Part shown: in pieces, positions 5,666 through 58,714 of the stretch | How positions within the stretch are numbered: position 1 is the stretch's first letter | How the letters are laid out: each line of letters starts with the position of its first letter | Virus record (IMG/VR): IMGVR_UViG_3300028048_000055 | Span: 64,001 to 128,000 of that record | Strand: one strand, 5' to 3' | Length of the DNA: 64,000 nucleotides | From: a virus | Taxonomy: Duplodnaviria; Caudoviricetes | Translations under genes and position numbers: made by a program | Notes under the pieces: model-generated | Databases searched by the model: none | Told to the model about the DNA's origin: nothing | Seen by the model: the letters and a program-made list of their open reading frames with translations, nothing else

Positions 5666-5673
5666 TATAAATA
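5666..5673 (+). promoter_or_regulatory. T4-type late promoter TATAAATA
   Basis: Exact consensus; also at 8126, 9363, 10166, 14576, 14919, 16467, 18269, 23096, 47232, 59749, 60701. Confidence 0.8.
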
Positions 5674-17051: not shown

Positions 17052-17366
17052 ATGACAATTAACGAAGCAAAACGAATTCTTAAAGAAAATGGCTACCTTG
17101 TAGAAGATACAAACAAAACAGAGATTGACTGTAGTAATTGGCACTGGGTAAAGTCAATGTCTAGTTATAACAATAATTACTATTACGATACTTTGAGTGA
17201 TGTTGAATTTTATCTTGAAGAATGCGATGAAGATTATGGAGATTATCTTTATTACGCCTGCGATAAATCAGGAAAGAAGCTAAAATACCTAGGATATACA
17301 AATCGTGAAGGTAGTGTTGAAAACTGTGAAGGTAAACTTGTATTAGACCCAAGTATGCCTACATAA
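17052..17366 (+). CDS. Hypothetical protein with EAKxILxxNGY motif
   Basis: AGGAG RBS; shared N-terminal motif. Confidence 0.75.
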   Translation: MTINEAKRILKENGYLVEDTNKTEIDCSNWHWVKSMSSYNNNYYYDTLSDVEFYLEECDEDYGDYLYYACDKSGKKLKYLGYTNREGSVENCEGKLVLDPSMPT

Positions 17367-17397: not shown

Positions 17398-17535
17398 ATG
17401 AAAGAAGAAAAACATTTTTGTGGCACTACTTGTGCGAATCCCGAAGTTAATGGTAATAAGGCAGATGCGGCTTGGAAACAAGTACCGATGTATAAACCTA
17501 GTTTATGGACTAGATTTATTTGGTGGTTAATATGA
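17398..17535 (+). CDS. 45-aa hypothetical protein (not in ORF track)
   Basis: MKEEKHFCGTTCANP...WWLI; ATGA overlap with next gene. Confidence 0.55.
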   Translation: MKEEKHFCGTTCANPEVNGNKADAAWKQVPMYKPSLWTRFIWWLI

Positions 17536-17831
17536 AGTTAGAAGAAGCTAAACAAATCCTTAATGATAATGGCTATCAGATTAATGAAATGATTGGTCCA
17601 TTTATGTTACAGGATTATACAGCTACATTTACAAATTCCGATTCTGGCGAAACTGTAGAAAAGAAAGTTAAAGCCTTTAATTTAGTTAACGCTGCTGAAC
17701 TTGCAAATAAGTATAGGCTCAAAGATGAAGATTTATCTTGTCATTATTCATTAACTAAGGTTGAATTAATCCCTGGCACATATAGATCAATGACTAATGA
17801 TGATCTTGAAGGTGATCCGGTAGGCGATTAA
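17532..17831 (+). CDS. Hypothetical protein with EAKxILxxNGY motif
   Basis: MKLEEAKQILNDNGYQINE. Confidence 0.75.
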   Translation: MKLEEAKQILNDNGYQINEMIGPFMLQDYTATFTNSDSGETVEKKVKAFNLVNAAELANKYRLKDEDLSCHYSLTKVELIPGTYRSMTNDDLEGDPVGD

Positions 17832-17902
17832 TCCTAGTATAAAAAATTCAAATATAAAACGTTAATTAATTTTAACGTTTTATTTTTTATTATATTTGTT
17901 TT

Positions 17903-18265
17903 TACATTTTTGAAGTCTATTTCCTCGGAGCGAAGACCAACTCAATGGAATTGTCGGTAGAGGGATAGCCGTTTCGCATGGAAATAGTCATGCGGGTTAA
18001 AAACTATGCAGTTTTTAATAACGAATCGGCAAATTGTCAAATTGACATGTCACGGTTAACGAAAATCTATTATCGAAGTATAATTATAGCAGAATTATAC
18101 ACTTAGCCGCCCTTGGTAGTATTAGGATGTAGCTGGAATACAGGAGGACCGATCCATAAGCCTAATATATAAATCCCGATGGTCGAAGACGATAGTCGTC
18201 TTCTAGCCTATCTTCCTGGATAGGCTCAAAGTCTCTGACGATAATTTTGACGTATGAGTATAAGA
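17903..18265 (+). ncRNA. Candidate large structured non-coding RNA (family unknown)
   Basis: ORF-free, GC-enriched segment with many nested inverted repeats; TATATT box at 17891-17896. Confidence 0.55.
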
Positions 18266-18300
18266 AGATATAAATATATAAAATAATTTAAAAGGATTTT

Positions 18301-21294
18301 ATGAACTCAATTCTTGATATTGCTGCACAATTCTTAAGTGAAAATACAAATCCCATAATGGAATCTTTCCATGATGAAAGTGTAGACCAAGCTAAGAAAT
18401 ACATAGAAAATAATTATGACGAATTATATAAGTTTAAGGGTTTTCAAAAGTTTGCACCGATAAAACCCAGTAATTTAAAAGAATTTGCCAATACTAAAGT
18501 TAGAGATATTCAAAGATTGATTATCAGTCCTTTTATCTATGCTCCGAGAAACGAGCTTAAATGGATGAATTCATATGTCTTAGGTCTTACAAGAATTATG
18601 TATAAGGACCTTTTATATGATAAACCGAAATTTAAAAAGAATTTACTTCAAGATTTAAAAAAGATATATTTAACTGCAGTATATGCTAGACAAGACGGTA
18701 TCGCTAATGGTGATAAGTCATTAATGATGGATAAGAACATGAATAATCTTTCATTCAATGAACTGAAAACAAAATTCATGCCATTATTTAATCATTATTA
18801 TGATATCTATAAAAAGAATAAACAAGAATATATTAATATCCATACACGTAATGCTACAACAAATACAAATCTTGTAGCAAATACAGCAATAAAATATGAT
18901 GGTGCAGGTAACGAATTAAACGATACTGAATATGAGGAACCGTATCATGAAAATTCTTTCAAGATAGGAAAATATAATGCATGTTTAATTCCTAACCATA
19001 AAGCTGCAGCTACATGGAACCGCTTTACTAATAAGACAAGTGATTCTAACGGGTGTAACTGGTGTATCACAATACCGTCTACAGATGATCACTGGGAAAG
19101 CTATGAATGCGGTAAAACTAGAACAGTCTATTTCTGTTGGACAGATAATTTCCTTAATTTAAACATAAAAGATTTTAATGACGGTTCTGCCCCGTATAAT
19201 GAATGGGGTAAGAGTCTCATGTGTGTAATGGTTAATGATTCAGATGACATTAATAAATTCGTTTGTCAAGTAACATCTCGATATAACCATTGTAATGGTA
19301 AAGGTGAAAACGCATCATCTTCTTTAGGTTTCGGTGATTATTTCTGTGGTGATCCAGATAGTGAAGGTCTTGCTGCAAATCTCGCACAGATATTAGGCTG
19401 TTCTGCAGAAGATATTCAGGAAAAGTTTTTATTTGACGGGGATATGGATGCGTCCAGTGAAAAAGGAGAACAGATATATGAAGATATAGCAGAAAGAATA
19501 AATTATTATTTAGAGAGACATAATTTTAATAATTTAGAAGTCGATACGATATTACCTGATAATTATGTATTAGCTACTTATTCCGATAAGGATTATACAG
19601 TAAATGTATTATTAAAAAATAATACATTAGTACCTAATTTCATATATACTTATATTTATCCGATTTATATAGGCAAGACTATAGATGATTGTATTTTTGA
19701 AGTAATAGATGCAACTGCTGAATATAGTGATCGTACTAAAAATATAGCATATGGTCCAAATGCAGATACTTATTTTGATCATGACATGGCAGAGATAATT
19801 CCAATTTATAAATTAAATAGAAGTTATTCGTCAGAGTATAATGATGAAAAATATAAAACAAAACATAGAATCGTCGCTTTAGCACCATATCATAATCATG
19901 AATATAATTTGTTTGATCTGGATAAAAAAGAATTCATGTTAAATGATGAATTCTTTATTCAGTCAGTATTTGAAAAAGATGGTCAGTTAAATTTAGCAAT
20001 AACAACCGGTGAAAATAGTGCTGAAAGAAATATCAGCAATGTATGTGTTTATAATATTGACACAAAGAAAACATATTATATAAAGAATGAATATTTAACT
20101 GATTTACAAGCAAGACTTGGTGATAACTATTTAAGATTTAATAATGCATATATGTATGCAAATGAAAGTAATGTTATATTATTTGACTTACTTAATATGA
20201 AACCTATAGAAGGTAATTATACTTATGTTCTTGAATCTCGTATTGCTTTTAAAGATTATTTAATTACACTAGATGAAAGTGCTAAAAATTTTGATTATAC
20301 TATATTTTATAAAGGTAACGTAATAGATACATTCCCAGCAAGAACACATATATATTGTCCAAAGGATAATACAAGAAGTACAGATGTATTCATAATTAAT
20401 TATAATAATGATTCCGAAAGCAGAATCTATTATAAAGGTAAATTAATTTATGCAAGCAATAGTGAAACCGATAATATTAAGACTTCTAGAGGCCCATTTG
20501 TAATCGGAAATGTATTATATGTCCGGCTTAAAGAAGAAAAAAATATAACAAATGATTATTCAGCACAAGCATTTAAGCTTATCGATATTAATACACAAAA
20601 AGTAATTACAGAAGATATTTGCATGGATGGAGAATATGCATTAGAAACAGCTGTTCGAAAAGATATACCTGTACTTGCTTTTAAAGTTAATCCAAAAACA
20701 AATGCTATCGAGTATGTCGTTATAGATAATAATGGAAAAATTAATAATTTAAATAACGAAGAAGATGAATTTATTGATTATAATATATTAAAGAGTGGAG
20801 ATAGCACTGTAATTGCATCGGATTCAGAAATTCGTATTAATGATGGCGATGCTAATATTACGATGCAATATATTAAATTCTATTCAAATGCAAAGATAAA
20901 ATTATATAATCCGGATGGTTCTATTTTCTATAAGCCGAATGATGATGACTTCCAGGGATTAAATTATGTATCATTAGCCCCATTAGGTTATGGATTCTGG
21001 CTGTTAACAAGAAAGATAAAATATTCTCGTATAGGATTACTTGAAATACACGATATAATCGATAAAAATGGTAAGCTTATTATCGGTAATACAGACAGTT
21101 CCCCGGTCAGCATTAATATTATTGATAATTTTAACGAAAATGAAGACCTATTAATAACAGCAACAAAATATGCCAAGGATATTGATTCTCGTGACTATAG
21201 TATTTCTAAAAACGGCGAACTTAAAAAATTGCCATACGGTTGGCAAAGCGCAAATGAAAACTATATTCAGAATCTTGCCGCATATTTATTATAG
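18301..21294 (+). CDS. Large late protein, paralog of 10178..12532, with beta-rich C-terminal region
   Basis: WCIT/YFC/WGKSLMCV/TSRYNH core; NEN..AAYLL end; late promoter at 18269. Confidence 0.75.
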   Translation: MNSILDIAAQFLSENTNPIMESFHDESVDQAKKYIENNYDELYKFKGFQKFAPIKPSNLKEFANTKVRDIQRLIISPFIYAPRNELKWMNSYVLGLTRIMYKDLLYDKPKFKKNLLQDLKKIYLTAVYARQDGIANGDKSLMMDKNMNNLSFNELKTKFMPLFNHYYDIYKKNKQEYINIHTRNATTNTNLVANTAIKYDGAGNELNDTEYEEPYHENSFKIGKYNACLIPNHKAAATWNRFTNKTSDSNGCNWCITIPSTDDHWESYECGKTRTVYFCWTDNFLNLNIKDFNDGSAPYNEWGKSLMCVMVNDSDDINKFVCQVTSRYNHCNGKGENASSSLGFGDYFCGDPDSEGLAANLAQILGCSAEDIQEKFLFDGDMDASSEKGEQIYEDIAERINYYLERHNFNNLEVDTILPDNYVLATYSDKDYTVNVLLKNNTLVPNFIYTYIYPIYIGKTIDDCIFEVIDATAEYSDRTKNIAYGPNADTYFDHDMAEIIPIYKLNRSYSSEYNDEKYKTKHRIVALAPYHNHEYNLFDLDKKEFMLNDEFFIQSVFEKDGQLNLAITTGENSAERNISNVCVYNIDTKKTYYIKNEYLTDLQARLGDNYLRFNNAYMYANESNVILFDLLNMKPIEGNYTYVLESRIAFKDYLITLDESAKNFDYTIFYKGNVIDTFPARTHIYCPKDNTRSTDVFIINYNNDSESRIYYKGKLIYASNSETDNIKTSRGPFVIGNVLYVRLKEEKNITNDYSAQAFKLIDINTQKVITEDICMDGEYALETAVRKDIPVLAFKVNPKTNAIEYVVIDNNGKINNLNNEEDEFIDYNILKSGDSTVIASDSEIRINDGDANITMQYIKFYSNAKIKLYNPDGSIFYKPNDDDFQGLNYVSLAPLGYGFWLLTRKIKYSRIGLLEIHDIIDKNGKLIIGNTDSSPVSINIIDNFNENEDLLITATKYAKDIDSRDYSISKNGELKKLPYGWQSANENYIQNLAAYLL

Positions 21295-21934: not shown

Positions 21935-23080
21935 TTATGATTTAGGTCTTACACAAATCATAAAACCTAAAAATCCTAATAAATATAATCCTGCTAAAAT
22001 TAAATATAATGTATTGTCGGTAAATGTATTAGCTAAAATCACTGAAGTAATTCCAGCTAAACCCCAACCAGAAAGAGTCATAGAATGAACTGTTGATAAA
22101 CAACTACTTCCAAATTCTTTAGCTAATAATGAAGGCAATACAGAAAAATTACCACCATAAGAAAATTCACAACATAATATACCGATAACCAAAAGAATAG
22201 GATTTTGTGTATAGCAAAGGAATGCACCAAGTATTCCAAGGCTTGCAACCCAGTGATACGCAGCCTTTCGACCAATATAGTCAGAAGCAGTGCTCATTCC
22301 AAATCTACCGCCGACATTAGCAATAGCAGTCGCAGCCATCAATGTAGCAATCGCAGTATAACCAGCATTAAGGAATAATCCTTTTTCTTGTGAAATCAAT
22401 GCAAGACCACATGTGATATTAATAAAGAACATAAACCATACAGAAATATATTCCTTGGTCAAGAATTTATCTTTTACCAATACCTTATAAGGTATAGCTG
22501 TATATTTAGTAGAAATATAATTTGGATTAGGTTTATAAAGCCATGAACATAATGACATTATAACCAAGAATATTCCAGACAGAATCAAGAATACGTTTGG
22601 TAATGTAAAGTTATTCAATAAGTATTCAATAACTGGAGCAAATACGAATTTACCAGTTCCGAAACCAGTAATAGCCAAACCAGAACAAAGACCAGCATGA
22701 TCCTGGAAGTTTGCCACTAGTTGTTTAATAGGCGCAGTGTAACCTATACCAGTTCCTGTTCCCATGAATATACATGCTATATAATATAATGGTAATATAG
22801 CAAGACTGGTAGCAGCAAATAATGCTAGCATACCGATAGAGAAAAGGACGGTAGAAACAACAGCCATCTTTTTAGGATTCATTTCTACCATTCTACCGAA
22901 TACGGCTGCACCCATTCCAAGGAAGAATATTATAAGCATAAAGCCTATATCGCCTTGGAATTTAGAAATGTCGAATAATTGTTGAATATTTGCCGAATAT
23001 TGTGAAAAATTATATACTGTTCCAAGAGACATCGGCAAAAGAATCCCTGGAAGCAGTATTTGAGTGAATCTATTTGTCAT
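21935..23080 (-). CDS. MFS transporter, oxalate/formate antiporter (OFA)-like
   Basis: About 12 TM segments; GTGIGY, GLCSGLAITGFG, GRF..SDYIGRK, YGGNFSVLPS motifs. Confidence 0.88.
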   Translation of the reverse strand: MTNRFTQILLPGILLPMSLGTVYNFSQYSANIQQLFDISKFQGDIGFMLIIFFLGMGAAVFGRMVEMNPKKMAVVSTVLFSIGMLALFAATSLAILPLYYIACIFMGTGTGIGYTAPIKQLVANFQDHAGLCSGLAITGFGTGKFVFAPVIEYLLNNFTLPNVFLILSGIFLVIMSLCSWLYKPNPNYISTKYTAIPYKVLVKDKFLTKEYISVWFMFFINITCGLALISQEKGLFLNAGYTAIATLMAATAIANVGGRFGMSTASDYIGRKAAYHWVASLGILGAFLCYTQNPILLVIGILCCEFSYGGNFSVLPSLLAKEFGSSCLSTVHSMTLSGWGLAGITSVILANTFTDNTLYLILAGLYLLGFLGFMICVRPKS

Positions 23081-55153: not shown

Positions 55154-56419
55154 ATGGTATTTGAAACTTTTGATAAAACTGTTGCATCTGGTATGGACCT
55201 CTGCCGAGTAATCGTTCAGAAGGGTTATGAAGCCTATCTCGTTGGTGGTTGCGTTCGTGATATGATTATGCAAAGACTTGGTATGAGTGACAAGACTGAT
55301 ATTCATGATGTCGATATTGCTACTAACATGCCTATTGAACAGCTTCGGCATAACTTCAAGACTGCAAGTAATAATGGTGAAGCACATGGCACAATTCTTG
55401 TAGAACATGACGGTATCTATTTCGAAGTTACACAGTTCAGAACTGATGGCATTTATTCTGATGGTCGTCATCCTGATTCTGTAACTTTTACTAAGTCGTT
55501 CAAGGAAGATACTGCTCGTCGTGACTTTACTATCAATGCTATGGGTCTTGATTGCAACGGTGTCGTAATTGACCATCACAACGGTATTAAGTGCCTTCAG
55601 GATAAGGTTATCAATACTGTTGGTGATCCAGTTGAACGTTTTAGCGAAGATGCACTCCGTATTATCAGAGCATATCGCTTTGCCGCAAGGTATAAGTTCG
55701 ATATTACTCCTGAGATTCGTGAGGCTATTCGTAAGACTAAGTATAAGCTCGCAGATATCGCAATGGAACGTGTTTCTGATGAACTTAAGAAGTGCATGTC
55801 TTATGGCTATACTGAAATCGCTGCTATGGTCAGAATGATGAATACTGATGGTATTTTCCAGATTATCGACCCTAAGGGCTATATTAACCCTGTCGAAGCT
55901 GAAAATATGCTCAGTACCCGTGCAGTTCGATTCGTAAATGGTATGGGAGGTGCTTATTCACCTCTTGGTTCGCTCATATGCATGCTCTGGGGCTCTGATT
56001 TAAAAAATGCATATCAACACTATAAGTTAGAGCACGAGGTCTTCAGATGCGCCCAATGGTGCTTTAATCACCGTGATACTTATCGTAATCCGGATGCTGA
56101 TATCGTTGATTCAGTTGAAATGATTGCTAATAAATATTTTAATCAGCTTTATGAGCTCGAAGATGCAATTAGTGGTTATCGTATACCTAAAAAGGCGATT
56201 GATGATTTCACTACAATCGCACCTATTGCATTCAAGAATCAAAACTTCCTTAGCGGTGTTCTTACTCATGCTGGATATCAGGGTAAAGAATTCGGTATTA
56301 TGCTTCATAAACTTAAGAAATGGTATTATCATAGCTTAAGTACTGGATATGTTCCTGAAACTCCGAAATCATTTATTAAAGACATTGAAGCAGCCCTTGC
56401 TGATATAAATAATAAATGA
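55154..56419 (+). CDS. cca: Class II tRNA nucleotidyltransferase (CCA-adding enzyme)
   Basis: LVGGCVRD, DVDIAT, DGRHP, RRDFTINAM, EDALRIIRAYRF. Confidence 0.92.
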   Translation: MVFETFDKTVASGMDLCRVIVQKGYEAYLVGGCVRDMIMQRLGMSDKTDIHDVDIATNMPIEQLRHNFKTASNNGEAHGTILVEHDGIYFEVTQFRTDGIYSDGRHPDSVTFTKSFKEDTARRDFTINAMGLDCNGVVIDHHNGIKCLQDKVINTVGDPVERFSEDALRIIRAYRFAARYKFDITPEIREAIRKTKYKLADIAMERVSDELKKCMSYGYTEIAAMVRMMNTDGIFQIIDPKGYINPVEAENMLSTRAVRFVNGMGGAYSPLGSLICMLWGSDLKNAYQHYKLEHEVFRCAQWCFNHRDTYRNPDADIVDSVEMIANKYFNQLYELEDAISGYRIPKKAIDDFTTIAPIAFKNQNFLSGVLTHAGYQGKEFGIMLHKLKKWYYHSLSTGYVPETPKSFIKDIEAALADINNK

Positions 56420-57565: not shown

Positions 57566-58714
57566 ATGTATATACCGAAGTTAGAAGATTATTATCGATT
57601 AGTAGATGAAGGTTTATTATCAAAGCATGAAACTGAAGATTTAGTCGGTTTCAAGTATAATATTCATACTACTTTTAATAAGCTATGGAATGACGTTACT
57701 CTTAACGCCCGTGGTATTACTTTTGATAAGCATACCGGTAAAATTGTTGCACGTCCTTTCCGAAAGTTCTTCAATCACTCGGAATTTATTACTATTGACC
57801 ATGCAACAACGGAGCTTTATGATATTGTTCCACAAGAATATCGTCCGAATATTTCTGGCCCTTTCAGAGTTATGGATAAGCTTGATGGTTTCCTCGCTAT
57901 TACGTTCTATAATCCCTACACAGAAAAGTGGCAGGTAAAGACTGGTGGTTCATTTCAGGCAAAGCAGTCTGATTGGGGTCAACATTGGCTTGATGAACAT
58001 GTCAATACCGATAAGATGAAACTTGAAAATACCTATCTTTTCGAAGGTATTTGGAGTGGTGATAGACATGTAGTCAAGTATGACTATGAAGCTCTTAAAT
58101 TGCTCGCTGTTATCCCGAATGCAACTGGTAATGAATTACCATTATCTGACATTATCCAAGCAGCAAATGATTTGGGTGTAGAAATGGCAGAAGTTAAGCA
58201 GTATTCTAATTTCAATGATATGCTTAAGGAAGTTGCTGATTATCCGTCTACACTTGAAGGCGTTGTCGTTACATTCGATAACGGTTATAAGTGCAAGGTT
58301 AAGGGTATTCAGTATTGTGAGATGTTCATGGTATTGAACAACTTGACTGAAAGAGAAATTTACATGAGATATGATCCGGTTAAGGATATTGTTTATGCTA
58401 ATGTAAATCCGGCAAATGGCTATAAACCGCTTGATGAAGAAGTTCTTGTGGTTCCTGAAGAATTGCCGGAAATTTCAGAATATGTAAAGGTTCTTAAAAC
58501 CAGACAACACGCATTGTTTGAAACTGTATTAAATATGGCCAAGGAAATCCTTAAGACCGGTTTTGAAGGTAAGGCTTTATACGATGAAGTATGCAATCGT
58601 TGGAAGAATAAACCGGAACTTATCGGTGCAACAATGGGTGCAATAAAGTCTTTACAGAGAGGCGATACTGTATTCTCTACAGCTAAACTTGCTGTCAAGA
58701 AACTTTTACGATAA
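57566..58714 (+). CDS. rnlA: T4 Rnl1-family RNA ligase
   Basis: ARG, ARPFRKFFN, KLDG (motif I), TYLFE, EGVVV, KVK. Confidence 0.88.
   Translation: MYIPKLEDYYRLVDEGLLSKHETEDLVGFKYNIHTTFNKLWNDVTLNARGITFDKHTGKIVARPFRKFFNHSEFITIDHATTELYDIVPQEYRPNISGPFRVMDKLDGFLAITFYNPYTEKWQVKTGGSFQAKQSDWGQHWLDEHVNTDKMKLENTYLFEGIWSGDRHVVKYDYEALKLLAVIPNATGNELPLSDIIQAANDLGVEMAEVKQYSNFNDMLKEVADYPSTLEGVVVTFDNGYKCKVKGIQYCEMFMVLNNLTEREIYMRYDPVKDIVYANVNPANGYKPLDEEVLVVPEELPEISEYVKVLKTRQHALFETVLNMAKEILKTGFEGKALYDEVCNRWKNKPELIGATMGAIKSLQRGDTVFSTAKLAVKKLLR

Follow-up and report, generated by a model that had tools for sequence, protein, structure and literature searches.

The locus, its boundaries and its family

The subject of this analysis is a gene-free region within a 64,000-nucleotide (nt) stretch of viral DNA (hereafter, the window), which spans positions 64,001 to 128,000 of IMGVR_UViG_3300028048_000055, a 165-kb IMG/VR virus record with an estimated completeness of 40%. 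We consider it probable that a stable, folded RNA about 360 nt long is encoded in this region as a gene in its own right, and that it represents an enlarged version of the Rfam family cow-rumen-2 (RF02947) that is present in multiple copies in giant T4-like phages of the ruminant gut. An earlier reading of the sequence alone (the original prediction) had singled out 17903-18265 as the window's largest gene-free gap, richer in GC than the other spacers, and so it proved: it falls within positions 17832-18300 (469 nt), the window's longest stretch free, in all six frames, of any open reading frame (ORF) of at least 50 amino acids (aa), and the GC content of the RNA part is 0.39, against 0.32 for the whole window and 0.15-0.31 for the other long spacers. 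The features along the locus are as follows.

17856-17889, + strand: intrinsic terminator ending the 103-aa gene upstream, with an AT-rich hairpin at 17856-17881 followed by a U-run, read directly from the sequence
17890-17898, + strand: promoter-like box TTATATTTG of the RNA gene, with a -10-like TATATT
17904-18262, + strand: RNA gene of about 360 nt, ends approximate, from homology over the whole stretch in about 20 lineages and a + strand fold with z = -3.5
17917-17968, + strand: P1, the 5' hairpin, with internal loop GGAGC / GUA and apical loop AACUCA, from alignment A4
17969-18071, + strand: variable domain with lineage-specific hairpins (e.g., 17996-18019), from single-sequence folding only
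18072-18181, + strand: core, equivalent to cow-rumen-2 (RF02947), with a hairpin at 18078-18100, the linker UUAGCCGCC and a long stem at 18113-18179
18185-18203, + strand: Px hairpin GAAGACGA/UCGUCUUC, carrying the first copy (18188-18194) of GACGATA, a word that the RNA contains twice (the twin word), from lineage folds
18205-18226, + strand: P3' hairpin AGCCUAUCU/GGAUAGGCU, with loop UUCC and an invariant GGCU, from lineage folds
18227-18262, + strand: 3' tail, with a conserved GUCUCU, the second GACGATA (18237-18243) and then AUUUUGACG, from comparison of paralogs
18269-18276, + strand: T4-type late promoter TATAAATA of the next gene, outside the RNA and 25 nt before a 997-aa ORF

The region had been described as bounded by a terminator and promoter box on one side and by the next late promoter on the other, and these bounds were recovered at 17856-17889, TTATATTTG and TATAAATA. 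The upstream 103-aa gene ends at 17831; its terminator is missed by a consensus terminator scan because the hairpin has too few G-C pairs, and its stem has changed in a compensatory manner in the orthologs L144/L149 (GTTAA/TTAAC to GCTAA/TTAGC). In the lineages with a 5' domain like that of the window (type A, see below) and in the paralogs of G001 and G002, a yTATAtTTG box lies 15-19 nt 5' of a conserved AAGyC. A conserved ACAT follows the box at 17904-17907 and is the likely start, and GTTTACA occurs 16-17 nt upstream in several paralogs. Judged from these sequence patterns, TTATATTTG would act as the promoter of the RNA gene, and the ends and stability of the RNA are likewise predicted. Elsewhere in the window, at least nine more + strand ORFs have the TATAAATA octamer 10-36 nt ahead of their starts (the octamers so placed, including that behind the RNA, are at 5666, 8126, 9363, 10166, 14576, 14919, 16467, 18269, 47232 and 59749). 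This placement is consistent with T4-type late promoters, and the total number of such octamers is not above chance (21 vs. 17.8 expected).

An Rfam scan of the whole window returned a single match above the curated cut-off: cow-rumen-2, on the + strand at 18072-18181, which reaches 88 bits (E = 3e-15; gathering score 66) in an alignment that is not truncated but runs over model positions 1-106 of 106. In paralogs and orthologs the family scores 74-108 bits. The suggestion that this was a novel family therefore had to be given up, its centre being cow-rumen-2, and the locus belongs to a catalogued Rfam family, of which it shows a far larger and hitherto undescribed form. In a permissive scan of 17700-18500 (E up to 10), the only matches besides cow-rumen-2 were chance matches of snoRNA type. 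No ribozyme, ROOL, GOLLD, HEARO, raiA or OLE model was matched, either at the gathering threshold on the window or at E up to 10 on 17700-18500, nor was any RNase P model in these scans, and eight paralog loci likewise gave no match to a large-RNA family other than cow-rumen-2. Polynucleobacter-1, considered as a candidate 5' domain, was not matched in Rfam either, whether in this locus or in the eight paralogs. ARAGORN detected no tRNA or tmRNA gene in the window, and none in 17890-18300 at relaxed score. Since neither Rfam nor ARAGORN produced a match to them, the RNA is indeed, as had been stated from the sequence, not RNase P RNA, tmRNA or an intron (nor a tRNA).

The cow-rumen-2 motif reportedly originated in the 224-motif survey of Weinberg et al. 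2017, and to our knowledge no organism has been assigned to it. Beyond its Rfam listing, a literature search that took in the main text of the 2017 survey returned no enlarged cow-rumen-2 RNA and no corresponding megaphage RNA. The family is listed in the Rfam 15 paper among those improved with R-scape (PMC11701678). Its hairpin with UAGCA loop, AGCCGCC linker, long stem and tip are all present here, and the origin of the homologs, in samples from rumen and goat gut, is in keeping with the family name. The catalogued motif, however, is 106 nt long and typed as a small RNA, whereas here it makes up the middle third of an RNA of about 360 nt, to which are added a 5' hairpin, two 3' hairpins, a tail with the twin word, a promoter box and three to four paralogs per complete genome. 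What is new relative to Rfam and the literature is the conservation of the full ~360 nt, with box, P1, variable domain, Px, P3' and tail.

Conservation, structure and the twin word

Homologs were collected by scanning public collections with short core patterns and filtering the matches by BLAST and alignment; in a first DNA pattern search, about 90 of 95 matches were due to chance and only 7 loci were real. Apart from further paralogs, the whole-length homologs number 36 unique sequences, which fall into 14 clusters at 85% identity and derive from IMG/VR phage contigs (of up to 411 and 416 kb), rumen metagenomes and goat-gut bins of metagenome-assembled genomes (MAGs). The original prediction had pointed to rumen phage DNA as the place to look for covarying homologs, and they were found there, with covariation in P1 and the core. 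About 20 lineages, represented by phage contigs from rumen and goat gut, keep the whole ~360 nt, with conservation extending from the promoter-like box to about 18260, and in BLAST the 5' part (window 17884-17973) was matched even better than the core. The 5' domain is of two kinds, type A, as in the window, and a different type B; the core and the 3' part are common to all. Among the goat-gut MAG bins, L140-L143, labelled 'Bacilli bacterium' and 'Methanobrevibacter sp.', hold contigs with the RNA. These contigs are probably phage DNA mis-binned by composition, and they are unsuitable for host assignment.

Several records contain more than one copy of RF02947. There are three in a 411-kb record (98% complete), four in a 415,750-bp record with terminal repeats (100% complete), two each in records of 230, 137 and 139 kb, and one in the present 165-kb record. 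The four copies in the 416-kb phage are located at 51, 113, 273 and 359 kb. One of these paralogs, L149 (also L144), is the ortholog of the window copy, with which it shares the end of the upstream gene, the terminator, the promoter box and P1.

That the locus encodes a large multi-helix phage RNA read from the + strand, as originally proposed, is upheld by covariation, by G-U pairing in P1 and by folding energy. Compared with 100 shuffles, the + strand fold (-100.2 kcal/mol) has a z-score of -3.5, none of the shuffled sequences being as good, and the - strand has a z-score of -1.6. RNAalifold, applied to 19 type-A sequences, resolves the 5' conserved block as a self-contained hairpin, P1, and not as half of a closing helix. 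In a clean alignment of 21 distinct P1 segments (A4), for which 17 proposed pairs were scored, 93.6% of the cells are paired, compared with 77.4% in shuffles; both sides have changed in 9 of the 17 pairs; and the covariation score of 0.414 exceeds that of shuffles (0.119; reached by 0 of 500) and of controls with slid partners (at most 0.09). A double compensation within P1 is also seen between the near-identical L102 and L099 (GAC..GnnC vs. CAG..CnnG). Because a U-G pair that is kept in 16 of the 21 sequences would be a C-A mismatch on the other strand, the + strand is the RNA strand.

This hairpin is incompatible with the four outer closing stems that had been drawn for the RNA (ACTCA/TGAGT, AATTGTCG/CGATAATT, AGAG/CTCT and GGGAT/ATCCC). 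Their 5' halves belong to the covarying P1, and in the ortholog L144, whose 5' half is identical, the partners TGAGT and CGATAATT are absent. Ad hoc pairings of the P1 loop CAAUG with CAUUG of the tail, or of GCG with CGC, were likewise rejected, L102 and L099 compensating inside P1 instead.

Between P1 and the core lies a domain that differs in length and sequence between lineages, even from the ortholog L144. The originally described GCCG.TTCG/CGAA.CGGC stem with its two enclosed hairpins, a three-way junction, and the stem CGGTTAA/TTAGCCG fall in this domain and are candidate, lineage-specific elements, other hairpins taking their place in the ortholog. In contrast to the variable peripheral helices, the core is rich in invariant nucleotides, which include UAGC three times and ACAGGnnGACC. 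Its hairpin GUAUAAUU / AAUUAUAC (18078-18100, loop AUAGCAG) is followed by the linker UUAGCCGCC, so that the marks of RF02947, a UAGCA-type loop and a single-stranded AGCCGCC linker, are both present, and its long stem (18113-18179) carries the internal loops GAUGUAGC / UAAGCC and the tip ACAGGnnGACC. Two stems recognised beforehand, GTATAATT/AATTATAC and TATTAGG/CCTAATA, coincide with the Rfam hairpin and long stem, and both covary. In alignment A2, pair 198-215 of the hairpin occurs as CG6 AU6 GC5 UA1, and in the long stem pair 241-282 occurs as AU9 UA7 GC1 and pair 242-281 as AU7 CG5 UA4 GC2.

The two 3' hairpins were also anticipated. The proposed stem GAAGACGA/TCGTCTTC corresponds to Px, at whose position most of the 24 lineage folds have a hairpin, which varies in size and usually has a GAC/GUC stem. 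The stem AGCCTATC/GATAGGCT corresponds to P3', an equivalent of which, with a 3' strand ending in GGCU, is present in nearly all 24 lineage folds and has undergone compensatory changes. Counted from GGCU inward, its pairs are UA10/GC7/AU1 and CG3/UA5/UG3/AU5/GC1; the counts were taken from per-sequence folds, a MAFFT alignment of the segments being structurally inconsistent. The strand that pairs with GGCU varies among AGCC, AGUC, AGUU and UGCC.

Other partners considered for the 3' GGCU did not hold. A long-range helix from RNAalifold, between GCC after P1 and the 3' GGC, is at odds with the local pairing of GGCU in P3'. A pairing of AAGUCC with the 3' GGCU, resembling P4 of RNase P, is contradicted by covariation that favours the Rfam stem: where AAGUCC has become AAAUCC, the 5' strand of the Rfam stem has changed from GGCU to GGUU/GGUA, and the 3' GGCU is unchanged. 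A column-pair scan for further long-range helices yielded invariant 4-bp candidates only (AGCC with GGCU, CGGU with GCCG), none of which covaries. As a hypothesis only, the P1 internal loop GGAGC might pair with UUCC of the P3' loop. This internal loop is GGAGC here and GGAAC in most lineages, and a few variants that agree with such a loop-loop contact occur in L144 (GGAG/CUCC) and in type B (GGAUUC/GAAUCC and GAAUC/GAUUC).

Of 20 lineages, 19 contain a 6-9-nt word twice in the same sense, once in or next to the Px loop and once in the tail, 10-23 nt after GGCU, the offsets being fixed. The word is GACGATA in this window, ACAGAT in three paralogs of the 416-kb phage and GCAGGT in its fourth; in other lineages it takes the forms CCAAAAG, CTAAAAG, CAAAAAG, AAACAAAGA, AGAAAAAAG, GTAAAAG and GTGAAG. 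Both copies change concordantly between lineages. The tail copy is bordered by the conserved sequences GUCUCU and AUUUUGA(A)CG, and among the paralogs of the 416-kb phage these flanks are retained while the word between them varies, matching that of the Px loop. The tail was also considered as a mimic of a tRNA 3' end, there being a 13-nt identity between 18234-18246 and a tRNA-Leu(GAG) gene of the same genome, over its 3' acceptor strand, discriminator and trailer (G000:C1:57869-57881). The corresponding words in the 416-kb relative are not at tRNAs, and the identity is probably due to chance.

Carrier phages and neighbouring genes

These RNAs are carried by ruminant-gut megaphages of the T4-like kind, whose genomes measure about 410 kb. 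ARAGORN identifies an array of 38 tRNA genes (G000:C1:43136-63228) shortly before position 64001 of the record, where the window begins. None of the six tRNAs whose ends were read has an encoded CCA, and in five of them TAA follows. Together with a tRNA nucleotidyltransferase, i.e., a CCA-adding enzyme (55154-56419; phrog_2244, E = 1e-55), and a T4 RnlA-like RNA ligase (57566-58714; phrog_562, E = 1e-42), this array is a toolkit for tRNA maturation and repair.

The gene downstream of the RNA, behind TATAAATA, is the 997-aa ORF (18301-21294). Searches of the flanking genes, this ORF included, against Pfam and PHROGs gave no match, and no homolog of the 997-aa protein stands beside any other copy of the RNA. 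Several other window ORFs of 600-800 aa are likewise without a Pfam or PHROG match. Directly upstream of the RNA are two tandem paralogous genes of about 100 aa (17052-17366 and 17520-17831), whose N-termini share ..EAK.IL..NGY and which have no Pfam or PHROG match; such genes, in three tandem copies, also precede the orthologous RNA L149 in the 416-kb phage. About 3.5 kb downstream, on the - strand, is a gene resembling transporters of the major facilitator superfamily (MFS; 21935-23080; PF07690, E = 7e-23), whose product is 78% identical to those of genes at the matching place in the related phage contigs L033, L046 and L139.

The genes that neighbour the RNA differ between lineages, the MFS-like gene being the only one in common with the L033 lineage, and even the orthologous copy L149 has a downstream gene other than that in the window. 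In L033 the RNA is opposite in direction to all its neighbours and has a hairpin terminator directly behind it; a terminator also stands behind the RNA in L116, and in L069/L099/L131 an ORF starts 20-40 nt after the tail. In many homologs, antisense ORFs of 70-149 aa overlap the RNA (e.g., L033:4162-4514) and are callable as genes, although they are spurious; there are none over the RNA in this window.

A probable free-standing RNA gene and its alternatives

The reading that we favour, that of an independent gene for a folded RNA, draws on both structure and context. That P1, the core and P3' are all kept by compensatory changes on the + strand implies selection on RNA structure. Because the neighbours differ, and because some copies run against their neighbours and are closed by a terminator, the gene is best understood as independent and its RNA as probably acting in trans and not as a leader in cis. 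Such an RNA would have TTATATTTG as its own promoter and a start near 17904-17906, and would fold compactly into P1, variable domain, core, Px and P3', with a GGAGC/UUCC loop-loop contact possible. The conserved body may then serve as a scaffold binding a phage or host protein, and the Px loop and the 3' tail would each present the same short single-stranded word; the RNA could thereby function as decoy, sponge or adaptor towards a partner able to recognise the word. Scaffold and decoy, along with ribozyme, had been among the roles first suggested. We put forward this mechanism tentatively, and regard it as rather more likely to be wrong than right.

A functional analogy may be drawn with RNAs of the CsrB/RsmZ type, which sequester proteins by means of a repeated short word, and with 6S RNA, which acts as a decoy. 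Here, too, a short word is situated in a hairpin loop and a single-stranded tail, and the RNA, if the analogy is apt, would be abundant, trans-acting and expressed from its own promoter. It differs from these systems in having only two copies of the word and a large conserved folded body, and in that the word varies by lineage, which is unexpected if it were recognised by a protein of fixed specificity.

There is also a more daring possibility, which we rate as unlikely: enlarged cow-rumen-2 RNAs might be programmable 'address' RNAs, in which an invariant body, probably protein-bound, carries a cassette of 6-9 nt that varies by lineage and paralog and is shown in the Px loop and in the tail, between conserved flanks. 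The cassette would base-pair with, or stand in for, a targeted nucleic acid, which could be an RNA of host or phage or the site recognised by a host enzyme of defence or RNA processing, and each paralog would steer or draw off one shared machinery towards a target of its own.

Several observations weigh against parts of this account. The fold of lowest free energy for the single window sequence uses the outer stems and is 9.6 kcal/mol better than the one with P1 enforced (-100.2 vs. -90.6). We read this preference as fortuitous and misleading, and the outer stems may be an alternative fold peculiar to the phage of the window. For the loop-loop contact, mean duplex energies of GGARC with UUCC do not separate matched from mismatched combinations (-5.8 vs. 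-5.6 kcal/mol), and neither do those in type B (-8.5 vs. -8.2 kcal/mol). With respect to the twin word, the A-richness of the tails means that about 32% of pairs share a word of at least 6 nt even when shuffled or mismatched; the case for it rests on the fixed positions and concordant changes, among lineages that are related to one another, and no conserved complement of the word exists inside the RNA. Finally, there is no terminator between the RNA and the next gene in this window, such that read-through is possible.

The alternative that fares best, unlikely as we hold it to be, is that the RNA is a self-sufficient machine, either a ribozyme or an RNA-only multimer of the ROOL/GOLLD kind, with the core as its active or assembly centre. 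The arrangement of an invariant core amid variable peripheral helices is typical of ribozymes and ornate RNAs. ROOL and GOLLD, which are associated with phages or prophages and assemble into cages, resemble the present RNA in being large, multi-helix, promoter-driven noncoding RNAs from tRNA-rich DNA of rumen or gut phages. The 38 tRNAs of the record conform to the frequent occurrence of these two families in tRNA-rich phage, as described for them (PMC5737381; cryo-EM preprint 10.1101/2024.12.08.627333). The resemblance does not extend to sequence or structure, however: even at E up to 10, no ribozyme, ROOL, GOLLD, HEARO or RNase P model of Rfam is matched, and the one pairing reminiscent of RNase P P4 (AAGUCC/GGCU) is contradicted. 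At about 360 nt, the RNA is far smaller than ROOL or GOLLD, having half their size or less; it exists as several diverged paralogs per genome; and it presents no self-complementary loop or other sign of self-assembly.

The transcript might instead prime replication, by forming an R-loop, a persistent hybrid with the template, from whose processed 3' end synthesis begins, as at T4 origins or with RNA II of ColE1. In favour of this are the several copies spread around the genome in the 416-kb phage (51, 113, 273 and 359 kb), where two of the four are at sites of diverging transcription, and the promoter-like box at each copy. A replication origin had already been named as the alternative to an RNA gene. 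Against it stand the clear selection on RNA base pairs, including G-U pairs on the + strand, and the highly conserved core of 106 nt, which is unneeded for an R-loop; moreover, the terminator directly behind the RNA in the L033 lineage and the lack of any local change in GC skew disfavour it, and we think it quite improbable.

The position of the RNA, directly upstream of the 997-aa gene on the same strand with no terminator between them, together with the ORFs that begin 20-40 nt past the tail in L069/L099/L131, would suit a cis-acting leader of that gene, i.e., a riboswitch, attenuator or translational operator. Context largely refutes this view, leaving it very improbable: the downstream gene is different in every lineage, and that of the window is without a homolog at the other copies; it has its own late promoter, TATAAATA, after the RNA; and the RNA is followed by terminators in L033 and L116, the former facing away from its neighbours.

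To the idea that there is no RNA gene at all, and that the minus strand encodes a small protein or the region is a DNA-level repeat element, we attach almost no weight, since the antisense ORFs of many homologs, which cluster together in BLASTP, merely mirror the nucleotide conservation, no ORF of more than 42 aa crosses the RNA gene in this window, the substitutions in stems are compensatory and not codon-patterned, and the Rfam score, which joins sequence and structure, is 88-108 bits.

As an independent RNA gene, the locus turns an orphan motif into the core of a much larger RNA and identifies the carriers of cow-rumen-2 as T4-like megaphages that also encode a CCA-adding enzyme, an RNA ligase and tRNAs by the dozen; the complete representatives, of 411-416 kb, retain three or four diverged copies. 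Testable features of the full-length RNA are P1, P3', the possible loop-loop contact and the twin word, and its definition opens the way to structure determination, pull-downs and phage genetics. Large conserved RNAs this invariant have often proved to be ribozymes, cores of ribonucleoproteins or, in recent cases, RNA cages. If the 'address' proposal were true, these RNAs would constitute a new class of phage guide or decoy RNA.

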